The notes beneath the pieces are model-generated. The model had not been told where the DNA came from. It did no database searches and saw nothing but the letters and a program-made list of their open reading frames with translations. Positions 17,163 to 47,867 of a stretch of 64,000 nucleotides of DNA are shown piece after piece. The position numbers and the translations under genes were made by a program. How positions within the stretch are numbered: the first letter of the stretch is position 1; each line of letters starts with the position of its first letter. The stretch is from Octopus vulgaris. Its lineage: Eukaryota. The DNA is taken from positions 20,770,001 to 20,834,000 of the forward strand of contig OX597817.1 in assembly GCA_951406725.2 (NCBI GenBank). The letters are read 5' to 3'.

Positions 17163-18451
17163 CAAGTGGGGCGTTCAATAAGTAATGCCCCTGACCCACT
17201 TCCCATAGCAGTAGAGCAACGAAACATGGCACAGCTATTAGTCTTTTTCTACATAGGAACCACCCAGAGATACGCATTTTTCCCTTCATTTGATGCGACT
17301 CTGGAGACCGTTTTTGTAGAAGAGCCCAGCTTGGTCCTCCAACCACGACTTGACTTCAGAAATCAAGGCTGCATCATCTGGGAAAGGCTTTCCTTTCAAA
17401 AACAACTTCATGGCTGGGAAGAGGTGAAAATCAGAGGGTGCAAGGTCAGGATAGTAGGGGGATGGGGGAGGAGTTCATAGCCGCACGCCTGTGCTTCTGA
17501 TCTGGCGACACGCGAGTTGTGAACTGGAGCGTTGTCCTGCAGGAGGAGGATGCCTTTGCTGATCTTACCCCGCTTCTTGATTTTGATAGCTTCTCTTAAT
17601 TTCCTCAAAAGTGAAGCATATTAGGCTCCTGTAATTGTGGTACCCTTTGCCAGAAAATATGTCGTCACTACTCCGTCCTGGTCCCAGAAGACTGTGAGCA
17701 TGACCTTGCCAGCGGAGGGCTGCACCCTTGCCTTCTTTGGAGGAGGTCATGGTGCTTCCACTGCATTGACTGGGCTTTGGTCTCTGGATCATAGCGATGG
17801 ACCCAGGTTTCATCCTGTGTAATAAGTCTTTTGAAAAATTTGGACTCATCTTCTTGGCACATCTCCAAATTCACCCTCGAGCACTCGACGCGTTCTTGCT
17901 TCTGGAAAGGTGTGAGCAACTTGGAAATCCACCTGGCAGACACCTTTTGCATATGCAAATGGTCATGAATGATAGTTTCCACTGACCCGGTACTAATCTT
18001 GACCTCATGGGCTATTTGGCGAATAGTTATGCGTCGATCTTCCTATATGGCAGCCTCAACTTGACGGACGGATGCCTCATCAATGGCAGAAGGGGAACGA
18101 CCAGATCTGTGAGCTGTTTCCACAGAGTTCCGACCATGTTTGAATTCACGATGCCAGCGTTTTACAAGGTCATATGATGGGGCATCATCACCATAAGTTA
18201 CTTTCATTTCATCAAAAGTCTCCCGTGGTGTGCGTCCTTTCAAATACAAAAACAGGATCATTGCTCGACACTCAACAGGCTCCATTTCACACTTGACTCA
18301 GTTCAAACACCTGTAAATCAGAAACCACAATTAGTTAGAGCTGTAATTTGCCACTTAATCTATAGAGATATCAATCATTGCACATGCAAAATTTCAGCTA
18401 GATCAAACAACTGCAAGTGGGTCAGGAGCATTACTCATTGAACGTCCCTAG
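17163..18451 (-). mobile_element. Full-length mariner (Tc1/mariner) DNA transposon, inactivated transposase
   Basis: ~38-bp TIRs (ggggcgttcaataagtaatgcccctgacccactt / aagtgggtcaggagcattactcattgaacgtccc), TA on both sides; minus-strand transposase from ATG 18285 split over several ORFs: HTH (VKRWHREFKHG), ARWISKLLT, ITQDETWV, LQDNAPVH, LLPHPP. Confidence 0.95.
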
Positions 18452-24270: not shown

Positions 24271-25500
24271 CACCGAAGATTCAGTAGGGCTGTTAACAAC
24301 TGTTAAACATTTCAGCAATGACATTGGAATGCACTCTGGACTTGATAAATGTGCTAAAGCAACTTTTGTAAGAGGCTAGCTCAATCAAAAAGCTTCCATT
24401 AAATTAGATAACGACGCTACCATCAAGGAGCGTCACCCGCAAGAAAATACATATACTTGGTGGGTAAATGAAGGAGATGGTATACAACATGCTACTATGA
24501 AGGAAAAAATATTGAAAGAATATTACAGGAGAATAAGTCTCATACTAAAAACTGAACTCATTTCTAAAACTCGCATTGGAGCCATTAACACTCTGGCACT
24601 TCCAATAGTGGAGTATTGTTTTAACATCATTAACTGGATTCTTACAGGGCTCAAACGCCTCGTCAGAAAGACAAGAAAAAGGGGAAATCCTAAGAACATG
24701 CACCACCTAAAAGCAGATGTTGATCGTATGTATCTACCTACAAGTGAGGGGTGGGGAGAAATGAAGCAGGCAAACAGTGCTAAAAGACCTCCACAATAGT
24801 AATGAACGGGTGCTTATCTAATACAGAGGACTGGACACGACGACTTGTGTGCAAACATAAAAGCAGTACAATATCATAATGTCAAGGAAGATGGAAATTC
24901 GGAAAGGAACTTGGAATTAATCTTGAAATGGTTAAAGAACCTGAAACAACTGTCCAAAACTAGCGAAATGGATCAAGCAGACTGCAAAAAAGAACGGTTA
25001 GAAACAAATTGAGGAGCGATGGACCCATAGGCCTCTGCATGAACAATATATTCTTCGAAGTCGAAATGCTGATGAAGATCACGCAACAACCCCTTTCAGT
25101 AGCTCAGAAGTTCAGGATTTAAAGCAGAAACTGGAGGTTTCATACTGACACGATACCCAAGCTCACAAAAAATCTAACAGACTAACATTCTTCGAAATTG
25201 TTCTAACCCTAAATGCACATTCCGCAACACCCTTGACGGAATAATGGACCATCTCGACACGGGTTATTCTGTGCTGTCACCAAACGAATATAAATATTGC
25301 CACCATAGCGTAGGACAGTATTTACATTGGAAAGTATGTAAACACAACGAAATCAGTAAATATTGAGCCAGTCGTTGAAGGTAACAATGTCACCCAGGGA
25401 TTTCCTAGTTAACACTGACAGAACGATCCAAGCTAATCGACCATATATAATTTTTAAAGACAGAGAACACAAATACTTGTAGATTAATAGAAATAAATTC
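24271..25500 (+). mobile_element. R4/Dong-clade LINE, 5'-truncated, decayed RT C-terminus
   Basis: FSNDIGMHSGLDKCAK, KEYYRRISLILKTEL..AINTLALP, MHHLKADVDRMYLP; begins right after (AAT)n, the type of site Dong elements target. Confidence 0.85.
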
Positions 25501-28072: not shown

Positions 28073-29143
28073 TATATGTATACTTATATATATGCAGATG
28101 TGAACATGCATGGGCAATGCTATCTTCATTAGTCATTCTTTGAGATACTTTGTAATCTTTACTAATTTTTTTTTCATTCTTGTTTTGTTTAGTATCATTC
28201 CAATTTATGTCAAGCTGCTAAAGAAACCTCCATACGAATCTTAATGATGTGAAGTATGTCGCCTTAGGTTTTCTTATAGTTTTCCTAAATTAAAAATATT
28301 ATCTAACAATTTCACTTTTATTACTTGCTTTATCTTTTCTCTTGATTTCGTTAATTTGTTTCGTTATCATTTTGTTCTGTACCATTTTCGTTTCATTGCA
28401 TCGCTGATGAGTCGAAATACGTTTCCCCCGGAGAGTTACCTTATCTCCAACAGTCCTGTATATTTATTTTCTATTCTTATGATGTAAATTACATACAAAT
28501 CCCCTGTGATTTTACAGTTCTATCAGAATTCCTATAGTACGAATTTCTAAGCTCTGAGTCCTACTGACATAATATAGCAAGAACATGTTATGATAAAACA
28601 GACTTTCACATCAGCATGATTTTATTCACAGATAAGAATATTATTACGTACATGATCACGCACGTTTATTACGTACACGATCGCACATGCACACACGTGT
28701 AAATATCAAAATGCATACAGACCAACACACACACACGTGAGTGTGTGTGTGTGTGTGTATGAGTGAGAGAGAGAGGCTGTTTATGGTTATATTTGGATTC
28801 TCTACAAAAGAATAAAGTGGAGATGACACGTTTTTATTTTGTTTGAAAAACAATGAAAGCATTTCCGTATAAGTGGCGACAAATGCAGCACACTTAATCC
28901 TCAATGCTGCTACACTCTATTCATAAACTGACACCACTTTTTAATATATAGATATGCTTACGAAACATCAGTTTTCCAGAAATTGAACTCCCTCACCCTT
29001 TTTCTATCTCTTTTTTTATCCTTTCGTTTTATTGTATACAACTCCAACAAATTAAAACAGTTCACAGAATTAAGTTTACGAGTTGATCATTTGTAACGGC
29101 TGGGTAATATGAGTTCTTATATGACGATGTAGCAGCGAAAAAT

Positions 29144-30830
29144 ATGGCAAGGTTTGTCAAATGTTTAGAAGATATACATGCATACTGTTTCTTTGTGGAT
29201 GACTTGAAATTTTATGCCATGAATGAAACGAAGAAGAGCCTTGACTTAGTTACAACTTTCTCAAAGTATATATGGTTGGAGTTTGGTCAGAAGAAATTTA
29301 GCTATATGGTTGTGAAAAGGATGGAAACTGAAAATCGAACTAGGAACATCTCCTTCAATGACATAACGGTTTCCTCTATATCTGATGAAGAATGCTACAA
29401 GTGTCTATGTTACGATGTCACTTGTAGCAAAACACATGCCACTAAAGTATATTACCGCCGAATAAAGACAATATGGATCTCGGAACTCTTTGCATTCAAT
29501 AAAACTGTGGCCCACAATGTGCTTGCAGTGCCAGTACTCATATCAACATTTGGGCTGCTTGATTGGTGGCTTGATGGGATCCGAGCCGTTCGTGGAAAAG
29601 CCCTGAAAATACTAAAAAGCACACATAATTTCCCCATCAACAGTGATGTATACCATCTCTCCCTGAAACAAAAACAAGGGAGCAAAAGCTTGACATCGAT
29701 CCAGACCGCCTTTGAATGTTGTATCATATCCCTTCCGAAACTTTTTTAACCACCAAGTATCGAAGTGCATCCCTTCACCACGTTTGCATAGATGAAGCTG
29801 ATAGAATCATAAGACTTGGAAAGCAGCTCCTTGATCAGCATTCCTTGCTTGCTAAAGTTAAATACGTTTCCAAAGAACTCGCACTATTTTAAAAAATGCA
29901 ATGTATCATCACATGAATAGATGAGCGTTTAACACCAGAATACCAAGCATGTATATATTAGTAGAAAGCTGAGAGATGATGATAACATTGATCATCAAAG
30001 CAATCCTTCATGGACCAACAAATTGGTAACTAACACATGGAAAGGCATGCGTTTGCAAACCAGGAACAGGAAATAACAACCGAATACTTCACGGATAAAG
30101 AAAAAATATAAAACAGCGACGCGAGAAAATGAGCAAAATGTGGTATCTAATGTAGGCTTTGTGAAGTTAACCACGGATCTACCATCCACATATAAAGCAA
30201 TTGTCCGAAAATGTCATCACGGTATTATCCACCAATGGGACATGATATGACTAAGACACCGTAAAATGAGATCTATCAGAAGGAAAGTTCAGAGGCTAAC
30301 AGAAAAAGAACCCACAGTATGGTAGAAGCCATTGCCACTCATAATAAAAAGAAGCATTGTTGGAATGTCCCAGTGAAACCTCATTAAAATGTAAACATAA
30401 TGTACCTGGCATAGTGATTTGAGATGCAGGAGAGGTAATGTGTACAGCTGTGGAAATCAGCTGGCCGGAGTATGTTAATATAAACCTAACGATCAGTGAC
30501 AAAGAAAATACCCACGCTGAAGTATTGGGAAATCTTTAGCTACTGTATCCAGATTACAAGTTCAGGTCTATACCTGTAATTATTGGGGCACTGGGATATG
30601 TAGTGCAAGACCTAAGTACGAATCTTGAGAAATTAGGATTGTCCAAACCAAAAAAGATAAACTGATTCGAAGACTACAGATCCAAGCCATCACCGGAACT
30701 GTAAAAATTTGTGAAACTTTACAGAAGTTTTTCAATTATGTATGAGCATGTCTAGACATTCAACTATATGCATGAGAAAACATACATACCATAAAACATA
30801 CAAACCTGCCTATATACATACATACACTGT
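29144..30830 (+). mobile_element. R4/Dong-clade LINE 3' half (RT plus REL endonuclease remnant)
   Basis: ORF 29144-29749: FFVDDLKFYA, LEFGQKK, YYRRIKTIWISEL, LAVPVLISTFGLLDW; downstream KHNVPGIV..EISWP..KENTH (PD..(D/E)xK-like region). Confidence 0.85.
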
Positions 30831-30844
30831 AAATAATGATTGAA

Positions 30845-32345
30845 TGACACGGGATTATTACACTAGACTTGGGAAAATATGGCAGTCGGAATTCCCTTTT
30901 TGCAACAATATCCCACAAAGCATTTTGCATTACCGGTGCTGATCCCAACATTTGGGATACTTGATTGGTCTGTAGAGGAAATCCATTCAATAGATATCAA
31001 AACCCGCAAAATGCTGACAACAGCTGGGAACTTCCACAGAAACAGTGATGTTGACAAGCTCTACCTAAGAAGAAATGAAGGTGTTATAGGCCTGAGATCA
31101 GTGCAGACGTCCTTCGAATGTCGCATGGTATCACTCAGGCAGCTCCTGCTAAACAACAGAAGCAAAAACAAATATATTAATGCAGTCTTCAAAAGTGAAG
31201 TGACCAACATTGTACACGTTTGCAGAGAGCTCCTCAAGAACCAATCTTTTCCTAAAGATCTGCTATATAACCCCAAAACAGATGGGCTCTCTTACCTGAG
31301 ACAAAATCAGGCTGGAAAACACACTGCACATAAAAGGCCGTGCATGGATATGTTGCCCGGGATCTTGAAGGAGACAGTAGAATTGACATGAAGCGCAGTC
31401 TCTCTTGGACATAAGACCACCACATCACATCACACTTTGAAGGCTATGCGTTTGCAATCGAGGAACAGGAGATTGCTCGAAAGTAACAGGTGAACAAGAG
31501 AGACAGTGATGCTCTTGTAATCCCAAGGTGCCACCGCATGTATAGGTTATGTCATGTTTCTGTGGAAAACATTACGCAAGTGATTAGCAGCTGTCCTAAA
31601 ATGTCGTCATGGTACTTCTTTCCAATGTGGCACGATGTTGTTGCTAAAACAATTTACAATGCCATCTCCAAAAAAGACGGACCTGAAACAAATTTAGAAA
31701 ATCCTTCTGTTATGGAATATATTCTTAAAACACAACTCAAGGTATACTGGTGGAATATTCCCATCAAAACGTCTGTCAAATGTAAGCATAACATGTCGGA
31801 TATTATTGTTTGGGATAAAAGAAGCAAAGGTATGTACCACCACAGAGGTTAGCTGCCCTGCAAATAAAATTATCTCTTTGAAAATCAAAGAAAAAGAGGA
31901 TATATATGGACAACTGCTTCGAAACACCAGCTTCTATACCCAGACTATAAATTCATATTCACCAAATAATAATTGGAGCACTTTTTTTGTTAGTAAATGG
32001 TTAAAGGAGAATCTGAATAAACTTGGTGTTTTAGAATGAGAAATCGACCGGCTGATTCGTACATCACAAGTCACATATGTCAGTGGAATAGTAAAAATAT
32101 GCAAGAATTTTCTCAAATTGCAAACGTGAACTTGTCTGTGTTAACTAAATCGTTGTAGGAAACCGGCTCACTGGTCTGCGGAAAGAATATAAATAATTAA
32201 AGATAGAAGTGACATACATGCTTACAAAATTACCCTGCTGATGTTGTTTAAATTCCAATGAAGGATCCTTGGATATAAGTTAGAAACAAGCAATTTCTCT
32301 ATTGACAAGAAATCTTGAAATAAAACTAAATAACATGCCTACTAT
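30845..32345 (+). mobile_element. Second R4/Dong-clade LINE 3' half, tandem to the previous one
   Basis: FALPVLIPTFGILDWS..NFHRNSDVDKLYL, RLCHVSVENITQVISSC (CCHC remnant), KHNMSDIIVWD..EVSCP..KEDIY; ends at (TA)n. Confidence 0.85.
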
Positions 32346-45110: not shown

Positions 45111-45455
45111 AGATAAATTTCATCTATTTACATAATATTGTGGTCTCTTTCTTTCTTTTGCTATCTAACTGTTAAAGTGTCAACCGTTTTTTCATACCGA
45201 TATAATATTTGCAATCTATCTATCTATTTATCTATCTATCTATATATCTATATTTCTATTTGTCTCTCTGTCTATAATAAGTGTGTGTGTGTGTGTGTGT
45301 GCATATGTATGTGTGTTTATGTTAGACCTGGATTGTCCCGCCGACTTCGAAGTATAAGGCTCAGACAACGTACTCTTTATTTGTCAGCCATGATACTTAT
45401 GTTGAATGCGACGCTTCGAATTTGTTTATGAGTAGGGCAATGTTGGTGGATTACT

Positions 45456-45575
45456 TGTCTTCTTTATGCTGATGGTCAAACCAAAGGGATTACGTGCAGT
45501 AGAAAACCGTTCTAGAAGTTCCTGAGCTTCCTCTAAAGAGGTCACTGCTACTGCGGCATCACCTGCAAAAAAATA
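45456..45575 (-). mobile_element. RTE-clade LINE RT fragment
   Basis: FFAGDAAVAVTSLEEAQELLERFSTARNPFGLTISIKKT matches the RTE FADD...FGLTIS.KKT region. Confidence 0.8.
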
Positions 45576-45687
45576 GATTACGAATGATACTGGTGCGCAG
45601 CTGTGCTCTGGTATTGAAATGCCGGCAACCGAATAGTCAACCTCTGGTTCGAAACGGGAATTTGACACCAAATTGTATGTCATCAAT

Positions 45688-46772
45688 ATACAGTATACAT
45701 ATACTATATATATATATATAAGCATAATATATACATATATAAACCATGTATCCTACACCTTGATTCTTGGAACTTACCCTTACATATATGAATGTATATA
45801 TGTATATGTATATATATGACTGTATCCGAAAATTTCTTCACACAACTTGATTAAAAATTCAATATGAGCTATATGTAGACATGCACAAATTCTGTAAGTT
45901 TAAAACCTTTCATCGGATCTCCATGAATCGAACTTTCTTCAATGCAGTTAATCTTACAACTTCTTTTGTATCTACCCCTTTTGATGTTTGGGAATTCTCT
46001 GATGTTTTTTCGGCTGACGAGTACGAGCCATCTGTATTCACTGCATTTTTTGTAGCTTATTAAAGATGTCCTCGTACGAAACGATCGTACCGAGATTTTA
46101 ATCCATTCTTGTTGCTTTTTTTCTATATGTATGTATATATGTATGTATACATATATCTGCACTCACAGGTCAATCTTCGACACCCATCCCTTCTCCTCTC
46201 TGATTCCTTCTTTCTCTCTATCTCTCTCTTTGTTGCGTTTGTCCCTCCTCTCTCTCTCTCTCTCTCTCTCCCGTTGCTTCTCTTTCTTTTCTTTCTCTCT
46301 TCTCTGTCACGTGACTGCTGGCCGAAATCTGCCTTTCAGCTTCTGATCAGCGTCGTGTTAACATCGTTGTTTTTCGTCCGCCGCTATAGACATCGCCGAT
46401 AAGGCTCCTTTCCTTGCGCCAGAGAAAAATTTTTTTGCTTGTTATCAGTCGTAAGACACTTGTTGTTGTTTTCACCGTTAATGCTTCTGTATTTCATGTT
46501 TCTGTATTCCATTATTTTTTGTTTTTTTATATTCGTCCCTTTTGCTGTCCTGGTGTCCGTATGCATTCGATCCGAAAGTTTTCTAATGCTCGTTGCTTAG
46601 TTATTCTTGAGGGCTGGCCGTGATCTAGTAGTCTCAAGATTGATCAGCCGAAATTACTACGATGATCCGGTTCTTGACTGAGGACTGGGGTTTTCGAATG
46701 TCCTGTCCGTGTTTATTGTGTCGTCTTCTAAGAGTTATACGTTCTTGTCCATGTTGTATTTTTCTACATACC

Positions 46773-46827
<55 letters not shown>

Positions 46828-46975
46828 ACATACATATATACATACATATATATACATATACATATATACATTCATATATGTAAGGGTAAGTTCCAAGAAT
46901 CAAGGTGTAGGATACATGGTTTATATATGTATATATTATGCTTATATATATAGGTATATATATATATACTGTATA
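45688..46975. repeat. ~130-bp inverted repeat pair enclosing the 46008 hammerhead
   Basis: 45688-45818 (aaaccatgtatcctacaccttgattcttggaacttaccctt) is the reverse complement of ~46845-46975. Confidence 0.85.
46008..46095 (+). ncRNA. Type I hammerhead ribozyme, fully canonical
   Basis: tttcgg/ccgaga stem I, CTGACGA 46014-46020, 7-bp stem II gtacgag/ctcgtac extended by catct/agatg, GAAA 46078-46081, palindromic stem III ACGATCGT 46081-46088, GUA triplet, predicted cut after 46089. Confidence 0.92.
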
Positions 46976-46981
46976 TGTATA

Positions 46982-47400
46982 GATAACGCCTGGAGAAGAT
47001 CCTAAATGGATATAGAAAGAAAAATAAAAGAGCAGATAAATGTTGAGCGGCAAGTTTAGCGTCCAGAGGCGAAGAGCAGCGAGATGACAGAGTTAGTAAC
47101 ATTTCTACAGTAGATAGAAGGAAAAGAAGGAGGATCTGTGAGAGGGTGAGACGGAGCGGCAGAGACAACAGGGAAGGAAGTCTACAATGTGAAGGCGGGA
47201 GACAGAGACAGAGAGAGGAAGAGAGGAAGTTGGGATGCTAGAAAAGAAATATACATCTCTGCCTTTCGCCACCGGACACTTAGCTTGCCGGTCAACATCT
47301 ATCACCTGTCTTGGCATTTCTCTCTCTCCCCCTCAACATTTATCTGCTCTTTTGATATTTTTCTTTCTATATCCATTTAGGATCTTTTCCAGGCGTTATC
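46982..47400. repeat. Fold-back element with ~66-bp terminal inverted repeats
   Basis: gataacgcctggagaagatcctaaatgg...aaatgttgag (46982-47047) versus ctcaacattt...ccaggcgttatc (47332-47400). Confidence 0.9.
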
Positions 47401-47867
47401 CATCATACCAGCCTTCGGCCAACAGGCGGTGTTCATTCCATCTTCGTCAATCGCCTTAAATTACGTTTGTTTACTTTCGTACGTCCACTCTGTATTTGCT
47501 CGATCCCTGAATTTCCGTTAATTCTGCGGATGCCACCGATAACCGATATTTTCAGCATTATTGTTAAAGGCATGCAATTGTGTATTAGTATTTCGGTCGA
47601 TAACGGATGAATAATTAGAGCCCTTCTCTCTCTGTCCCTTGTGTACGCTTCTTAGTATTTAATACATTTTCATTTATCATATATATATATATATATATAT
47701 ATATTCATATACACCTACATTTCAGTGAGTTTTGATGCTAGAGAAGACGTTCTGCGTAGCGTGAATAGGTTTCATCTGAAGTCATGGCCGTTTTGGTAAA
47801 TGTAGTATGTTATTAGATATTATTAATGTGTATGGGTGCTCTTTAAATATTTCAAACAGTAATGTTG

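Follow-up and report, generated by a model that had tools for sequence, protein, structure and literature searches.

A sequence at 46008-46095 of the window, by which we mean the whole 64,000-nt stretch of Octopus vulgaris DNA analysed here, reads as a hammerhead ribozyme, and it raises the question of where such a motif came from and whether a single copy could sever the transcripts that run through it. We consider it very likely that this hammerhead belongs to the pseudo-LTR of a young Penelope-like element (PLE) of the Hydra clade and is carried on a 311-bp truncated tail inside one arm of a probably older inverted duplication. Efficient cutting is predicted to depend on a dimer, and the lone copy is likely a weak or silent passenger.

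The motif and the element that carries it

The features needed for this part of the analysis are as follows.

46008-46095, + strand: type I hammerhead motif, cut predicted after 46089 (sequence reading, script check and covariation)
46014-46020, + strand: core CUGANGA box, here CUGACGA (read from the sequence)
46028-46070, + strand: structured loop II of 43 nt, with helices 46029-46033/46064-46068 (outer) and 46041-46045/46051-46055
46081-46088, + strand: 8-nt palindrome, predicted intermolecular helix III
45816-46126, + strand: 3' end of a Hydra-clade Penelope-like retrotransposon, truncated on its 5' side (pseudo-LTR, short end), 311 bp, non-coding
45814-45818, + strand: left copy of a 5-bp duplication, overlapping the element end; a putative target-site duplication
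46125-46129, + strand: right copy of the 5-bp duplication (sequence comparison of the fragment flanks)

The motif at 46008-46095 is a genuine, intact type I hammerhead motif for which self-cleavage is predicted. Helix I joins 46008-46013 to 46090-46095 (6 bp, including one G-U pair) and helix II joins 46021-46027 to 46071-46077 (seven Watson-Crick pairs, with G10.1-C11.1), the GAAA element occupies 46078-46081, and a GUA triplet sets the predicted cut after 46089. CUGANGA, GAAA and NUH stand in three-helix order with helix I open, which is the type I arrangement. Reading and script both confirmed the canonical core, the 7-bp stem II, the 6-bp stem I and the cut position given in the original prediction. 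A type I descriptor scan of both strands of the window returned this motif as its single match, and 200 block-wise shuffles of the window returned none at the same descriptor stringency.

The 43-nt loop II folds into two further helices (z = -3.4) and carries unpaired bases that are conserved in the aligned sequences. Across 17 aligned sequences the core box is unchanged except at N7, an invariance to be read in the light of their having been chosen by core match with one mismatch allowed. Two-sided changes were found at 15 of the 27 pairs in these sequences, and the covariation of helices I and II is partly built in, given that the sequences were in part selected for pairing there and that four of the 17 rows are misaligned in helix II. 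Paired cells amounted to 85.4%, compared with 73.0% after shuffling, and none of 500 shuffles reached as high a value. The outer helix of loop II has 91.9% of its cells paired, with two-sided change at three of its five pairs. Rfam gave no hammerhead here at the gathering score, nor among the 34 matches at E<=10. The absent match is a limit of the library and concerns no defining trait of the hammerhead class; our guess is that the 43-nt loop II is the reason for it.

The hammerhead is not specific to this locus: it occurs in hundreds of near-identical copies on clipped retrotransposon tails. A search of the window's own genome (2.8 Gb) gave 973 candidates, the best 40 of 973 being 98-100% identical. 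Exact matches were found at 412 places for a 23-mer and at 195 for an 86-mer, with 0 for the controls in both cases. The fragment is common to all 29 of the other fetched loci, whose match to the window spans approximately 45816-46131, and the copies, truncated at different 5' points, are embedded in TA repeats, frequently with a second arm in inverted orientation. The motif is intact because its insertion was recent, as the 195 identical copies indicate, and not because of selection at the site. The family is also present in DNA contigs of four sequencing runs under three organism labels, which were not used as evidence; the arms were masked in that material, and it showed no allele lacking the fragment. 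Among four runs guessed to be RNA, contigs from three span the predicted cut; these are strandless family alleles that may be DNA, and they too were kept out of the evidence.

In long copies the same strand carries, upstream of the motif, about 1.3 kb of untranslated sequence, preceded by a GIY-YIG domain and, further upstream, a reverse transcriptase. Copies run for variable lengths into this 3' untranslated region and then into the GIY-YIG/reverse-transcriptase ORF at 95-97% DNA identity, which places the motif in the pseudo-LTR of elements with these two domains. The element protein is encoded by a single ORF, with the reverse transcriptase followed by GIY-YIG, of 1072 aa (L068:3457-6672, + strand); the same arrangement was found in other copies, and open frames of 1090 and 1091 aa occur in two copies. 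Two long asparagine-rich insertions (17% N overall) stretch the protein of L068:3457-6672 to its 1072 aa. In the sister subfamily, a hammerhead stands just before the ORF and another follows it in four of five fetched copies, and the cut-to-cut spacing is 4650-4722 nt in five copies, one of them from the window's family. Pseudo-LTRs with a hammerhead, partial tandems and inverted 5'-truncated copies are all present, as in EN+ Penelope-like elements. Pfam analysis of the excised domains gave GIY-YIG at E=9.8e-5 (23.0 bits, with a cut-off of 22.6) and RVT_1 at E=0.0017, which is under the cut-off. The full-length ORFs gave no reverse-transcriptase or GIY-YIG match in Pfam or NCBIfam, the latter returning weak unrelated matches only, and a PDB search with the reverse-transcriptase region gave one match (E=1.7).

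The clade was assigned from motifs and by-eye comparison with the published alignment, not from a tree. The Hydra motifs RW[R] (RWR at 37), DKT at 124, CxCX5C, CxxC and CxH are present, and the sister subfamily protein carries RWK. DKG, CX2-5CxxC and GxKF/Y are absent, there are no two cysteines inside GIY-YIG, and CxxC and CxH lie near the end. Insertion is into (TA)n, as in the Hydra clade, but the 4650-4722 nt between cuts exceed the descriptive, non-diagnostic Hydra trait of <3 kb. Judged from these sequences, the motif comes from a young Penelope-like element of the Hydra clade and is its pseudo-LTR hammerhead, a point that the original prediction had missed, and the family is a new one of a known kind.

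The copy in the window stops 37 nt beyond the predicted cut, at the shorter of two 3' ends that are fixed in the family: 17 of the 29 oriented loci have the long end and 12 the short one (L028 was left out of this count because of its wrong orientation). Among 30 loci (L001-L030), every two-armed insertion (11/11) combines a short with a long 3' end, and the two end points differ by about 133 nt. This agrees with the two start sites described in the available part of PMC11167929. In the full element, two pseudo-LTR copies some 4.7 kb apart on one RNA would pair via the 8-nt palindrome, and the paired hammerheads would cut out a unit-length RNA. At this locus, the element protein would have nicked TA-rich DNA, and reverse transcription would have begun at the short start site, which lies 37 nt beyond the cut, and halted after 311 nt. 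The locus itself carries little weight, being a stranded retrotransposon tail; the family, which is young and has copies with long open frames, is of modest value.

Cutting as a monomer or as a dimer

Stem III had been described as a perfect palindrome, and the ribozyme had been thought able to cut any + strand transcript through the locus. The 8-nt palindrome is indeed present, but in a monomer it forms no 8-nt stem, just A15.1-U16.1 and one C-G pair that close a 4-nt loop. Helix III is 100% paired in 17 representatives, and all seven distinct types of central 4-mer among 46 distinct motif sequences are self-complementary with G-U allowed; the search left the four central helix III bases free, and the fetched loci overlap, so that these counts are non-independent. 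Two adjacent central bases change together (AU in 13, CG in 2 and UA in 2 of the 17 sequences). Because adjacent bases are unable to pair within one strand and yet co-vary, an intermolecular helix is supported, and the covariation of the palindrome across subfamilies points to dimer use. The co-change of two adjacent bases offers clean comparative support for the dimer model of PLE hammerheads. Dimer use also agrees with how such hammerheads are viewed in the literature (PMC4209133 and the review PMC6765202, which cites Lunse et al., RNA Biol 14:1499).

Folding was compared by nearest-neighbour energies, which leave out the hammerhead core and tertiary contacts. A double hammerhead from two co-folded copies was predicted at -60.4 kcal/mol and two monomers at -54.4, a difference of 6 kcal/mol in favour of the dimer. 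Forming helix III in the monomer brought no gain in stability (-22.8 vs -23.1), whereas pairing of the core with the palindrome gave a predicted fold at -27.2, 4.4 kcal/mol below the helix III monomer; the consensus fold of 11 sequences also pairs these two parts. When two 137-nt copies were placed in an artificial close tandem, the inter-copy helix was not favoured (probability 0.007). On both strands of the window, the descriptor scan found no second canonical copy as a partner; the closest copy that is identical lies 315 kb off on the opposite strand. Efficient cutting is predicted as a dimer only, and the lone copy is for this reason likely to be a weak or silent passenger. Given the covarying palindrome, the core-sequestering monomer fold and the lack of a second canonical copy in the window, the claim that any + strand transcript could be cut here is doubtful.

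A copy of the same origin might instead cut well as a monomer, with the long loop II docked on helix I, and so sever + strand transcripts. The core and helices are intact, and the helices of loop II are conserved, with two-sided changes. According to the available part of PMC7229834, cleavage does occur in certain animal type I monomers whose helix III has 2 bp; an axolotl monomer with such a helix and a tetraloop was 22% cleaved in an hour, and a coral monomer with tertiary contacts reached ~0.8 per minute. However, covariation between adjacent palindrome bases would be useless in a monomer, a self-inhibited fold is predicted, and no helix I extension is conserved beyond 4 bp in the 11 aligned sequences. 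In addition, the part of PMC4209133 available to us describes a single Schistosoma PLE motif as inactive and dimers as slow. We regard efficient monomer cutting as unlikely. A more improbable suggestion is that the single RNA inhibits itself via core-palindrome pairing and that the even palindrome, together with the long loop II, acts as a switch activated in trans by another copy. If this were true, the hundreds of identical copies stranded within host transcripts would be cut only when element RNA is abundant, and this would amount to transposon-triggered cleavage of host pre-mRNA.

The inverted arms and the host locus

The motif lies among several further repeats.

45686-45818, no strand assigned: left inverted arm, outer part, locus-specific
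46130-46156, no strand assigned: left inverted arm, inner part, which resumes after the inserted fragment; 27/27 identical to the reverse complement of 46818-46844
46818-46976, no strand assigned: right inverted arm, uninterrupted (sequence comparison)
46157-46775, + strand: 3' end of another repeat family, truncated on its 5' side, with a terminal TA tract; enclosed by the arms
45751-45795, + strand: remnant of ~45 bp, the end of a third repeat family, within the arm and mirrored at 46868-46912
45420-45685, no strand assigned: older, dispersed repeat to the left of the arm, matching other places at 80-86%
46605-46687, + strand: non-circularly permuted hammerhead-like layout inside the enclosed repeat, cut predicted after 46633

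The inverted pair within which the original prediction had set the hammerhead is real, with 129 of 133 positions of 45686-45818 matching the reverse complement of 46845-46976, but it is unrelated to the hammerhead. The segment 46125-46156 equals the reverse complement of 46818-46849 at 32 of 32 positions, and the ribozyme-bearing fragment sits inside the left arm, because the arm resumes past it. By the logic of the sequence, the simplest order of events would be the inverted duplication first and the 311-bp insertion later. The left arm repeats, in inverted form, the DNA that immediately follows the 3' end of the enclosed repeat, and it abuts the truncated 5' end of that repeat, suggesting that 45686-46156 and 46818-46976 may represent a templated inverted copy made during the enclosed repeat's insertion. 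An inverted pseudo-LTR was rejected as the origin of the arms. A second inverted pair was seen at 46974-47050 and 47329-47407 (91% over 80 bp).

The hammerhead and the arms might be taken for one selected unit, which would be either MITE-like or a hairpin with a regulatory role, displaying the ribozyme within an intron of the host. The close match of the arms and their position on either side of the motif fit such a unit, and a + strand transcript could pair them. However, the arm was found at 0 of 29 other family loci, and the full arm core matched these two places only in the genome, which largely refutes this explanation. Moreover, one arm is interrupted by the fragment, the arms enclose another repeat, and no host gene was found in the ORFs examined. 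We consider a selected unit highly improbable, and a MITE with terminal inverted repeats was rejected, as arms common to many cassette copies were not found.

The host intron in question had been assigned to a GPCR pseudogene, for which we found no evidence. Pfam analysis gave no GPCR family among 147 long ORFs from both strands of the window (146 that passed a complexity filter, out of 295 of >=55 aa, plus one) and none that was credible among 126 of the 260 short + strand ORFs, namely those from 30 kb on. A motif search gave no GPCR motif cluster in the window, and a decayed or divergent gene is possible. Overlap apart, these lists omit the 134 short ORFs that precede 30 kb and 149 ORFs of middle length. 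Contigs of four presumed-RNA runs left 49-52 kb uncovered, and no splice joint among those listed was credible; we did not count this as evidence. Elsewhere in the window, a mariner transposase remnant occurs at 18046-18297 (-) and 17671-18042 (-) (HTH_48, E=8e-11), and broken frames at 24380-24796, 29108-29746 and 30867-32036 (+), which have no Pfam match, appear by eye to be pieces of a retrotransposon ORF2.

The enclosed repeat (46157-46775) has 2161 candidates in the genome (related loci L100-L118 and L126). An extra, pseudo-LTR-like partial copy stands upstream in 12 of 19 fetched loci, and three tandem copies at 829-bp spacing were found on C6. The layout at 46605-46687 in this repeat has three 6-bp helices in an unusual strand order, in which the chain enters through the core; the strict form matched once in the window and in 0 of 50 shuffles. 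Copies of the enclosed repeat retain the layout, and no two-sided change was seen in it. Its 6-bp helix III may make it a stronger candidate for monomer cutting than 46008-46095. Hammerhead-like motifs of unrelated repeat families also occur beside fetched copies, at L004:1954-2046 (+), L031:3186-3269 (+) and L081:8046-8107 (-).

A further explanation would make the motif at 46008-46095 the monomer of a non-coding retrozyme, that is, of a short tandem ribozyme repeat, and not a piece of an autonomous element. In being of type I and having a helix III that is short and palindromic, the motif does resemble animal retrozymes as described in the available part of PMC7229834. However, no short tandem of the unit occurs in the 30 loci, and the continuity of the copies with the 3' untranslated region and the ORF refutes a retrozyme monomer for the family; we give it very little credence. 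A chance match in AT-rich repeat DNA, which the empty Rfam result might favour, has a negligible probability and is refuted by the shuffles, the excess of pairing and the conserved position in the element.

Comparison with known systems

The pseudo-LTR hammerhead of a Hydra-clade element, our preferred reading, has its closest counterparts in the available part of Craig et al. 2021 (PMC8557442), section 11 of which defines the Hydra-clade motifs of C-terminal-endonuclease Penelope-like elements. The supplement, as far as we have it, includes TA-targeting Hydra families with hammerheads, one of them from Octopus bimaculoides (Hydra-1_Obim), which is by eye a different family from ours. The likeness extends to one ORF with reverse transcriptase then GIY-YIG, the motifs RW[K/R], DKT, CxCX5C, CxxC and CxH, TA-repeat targets, 5'-truncated and inverted copies, and a type I hammerhead, close to the 3' end, whose helix III is nearly palindromic and whose cut site has A, as in 13 of 26 published rows. 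In contrast, the octopus unit measures ~4.7 kb with a 1072-aa, 17% asparagine protein, whereas published ones are generally <3 kb. Its palindrome is even, with 8 nt, whereas the rows have 9-10 nt with a loop of 1-3 nt, and its 3' ends lie ~133 nt apart, whereas the published tail is 30-40 bp. The long conserved loop II has 43 nt and two helices, compared with 3-10 nt in the 26 Hydra-clade rows that have been published. Our literature searches listed no paper on this family, and supplements beyond that of PMC8557442 could hold similar motifs.

Metazoan PLE hammerheads, in the available parts of Cervera and de la Pena 2014 (PMC4209133) and of PMC6765202, likewise lie in both flanking repeats and have a long helix II and a short palindromic helix III. 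They are mostly single, from truncated elements, occur in opposite-strand pairs and have been proposed to act as dimers. Animal non-LTR retrozymes, as far as the accessible parts of PMC7229834 and bioRxiv 10.64898/2026.07.22.740005 describe them, share a type I hammerhead with a weak helix III, and the axolotl hammerhead of the former cleaves better as a dimer. However, those retrozymes are short non-coding tandems, whereas the octopus motif forms the end of an autonomous coding element and stands alone at this locus. The Poseidon element PAc of Anolis belongs to another clade and is, according to the available part of PMC11167929, the one Penelope-like element reconstituted in vitro; its insertion in vitro did not need cleavage by the ribozyme, and RNA-seq showed no ends at the cut site. 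PAc resembles the octopus element in that its pseudo-LTR holds a hammerhead close to the start of the ORF, its two 3' ends are fixed and its targets are AT-rich.
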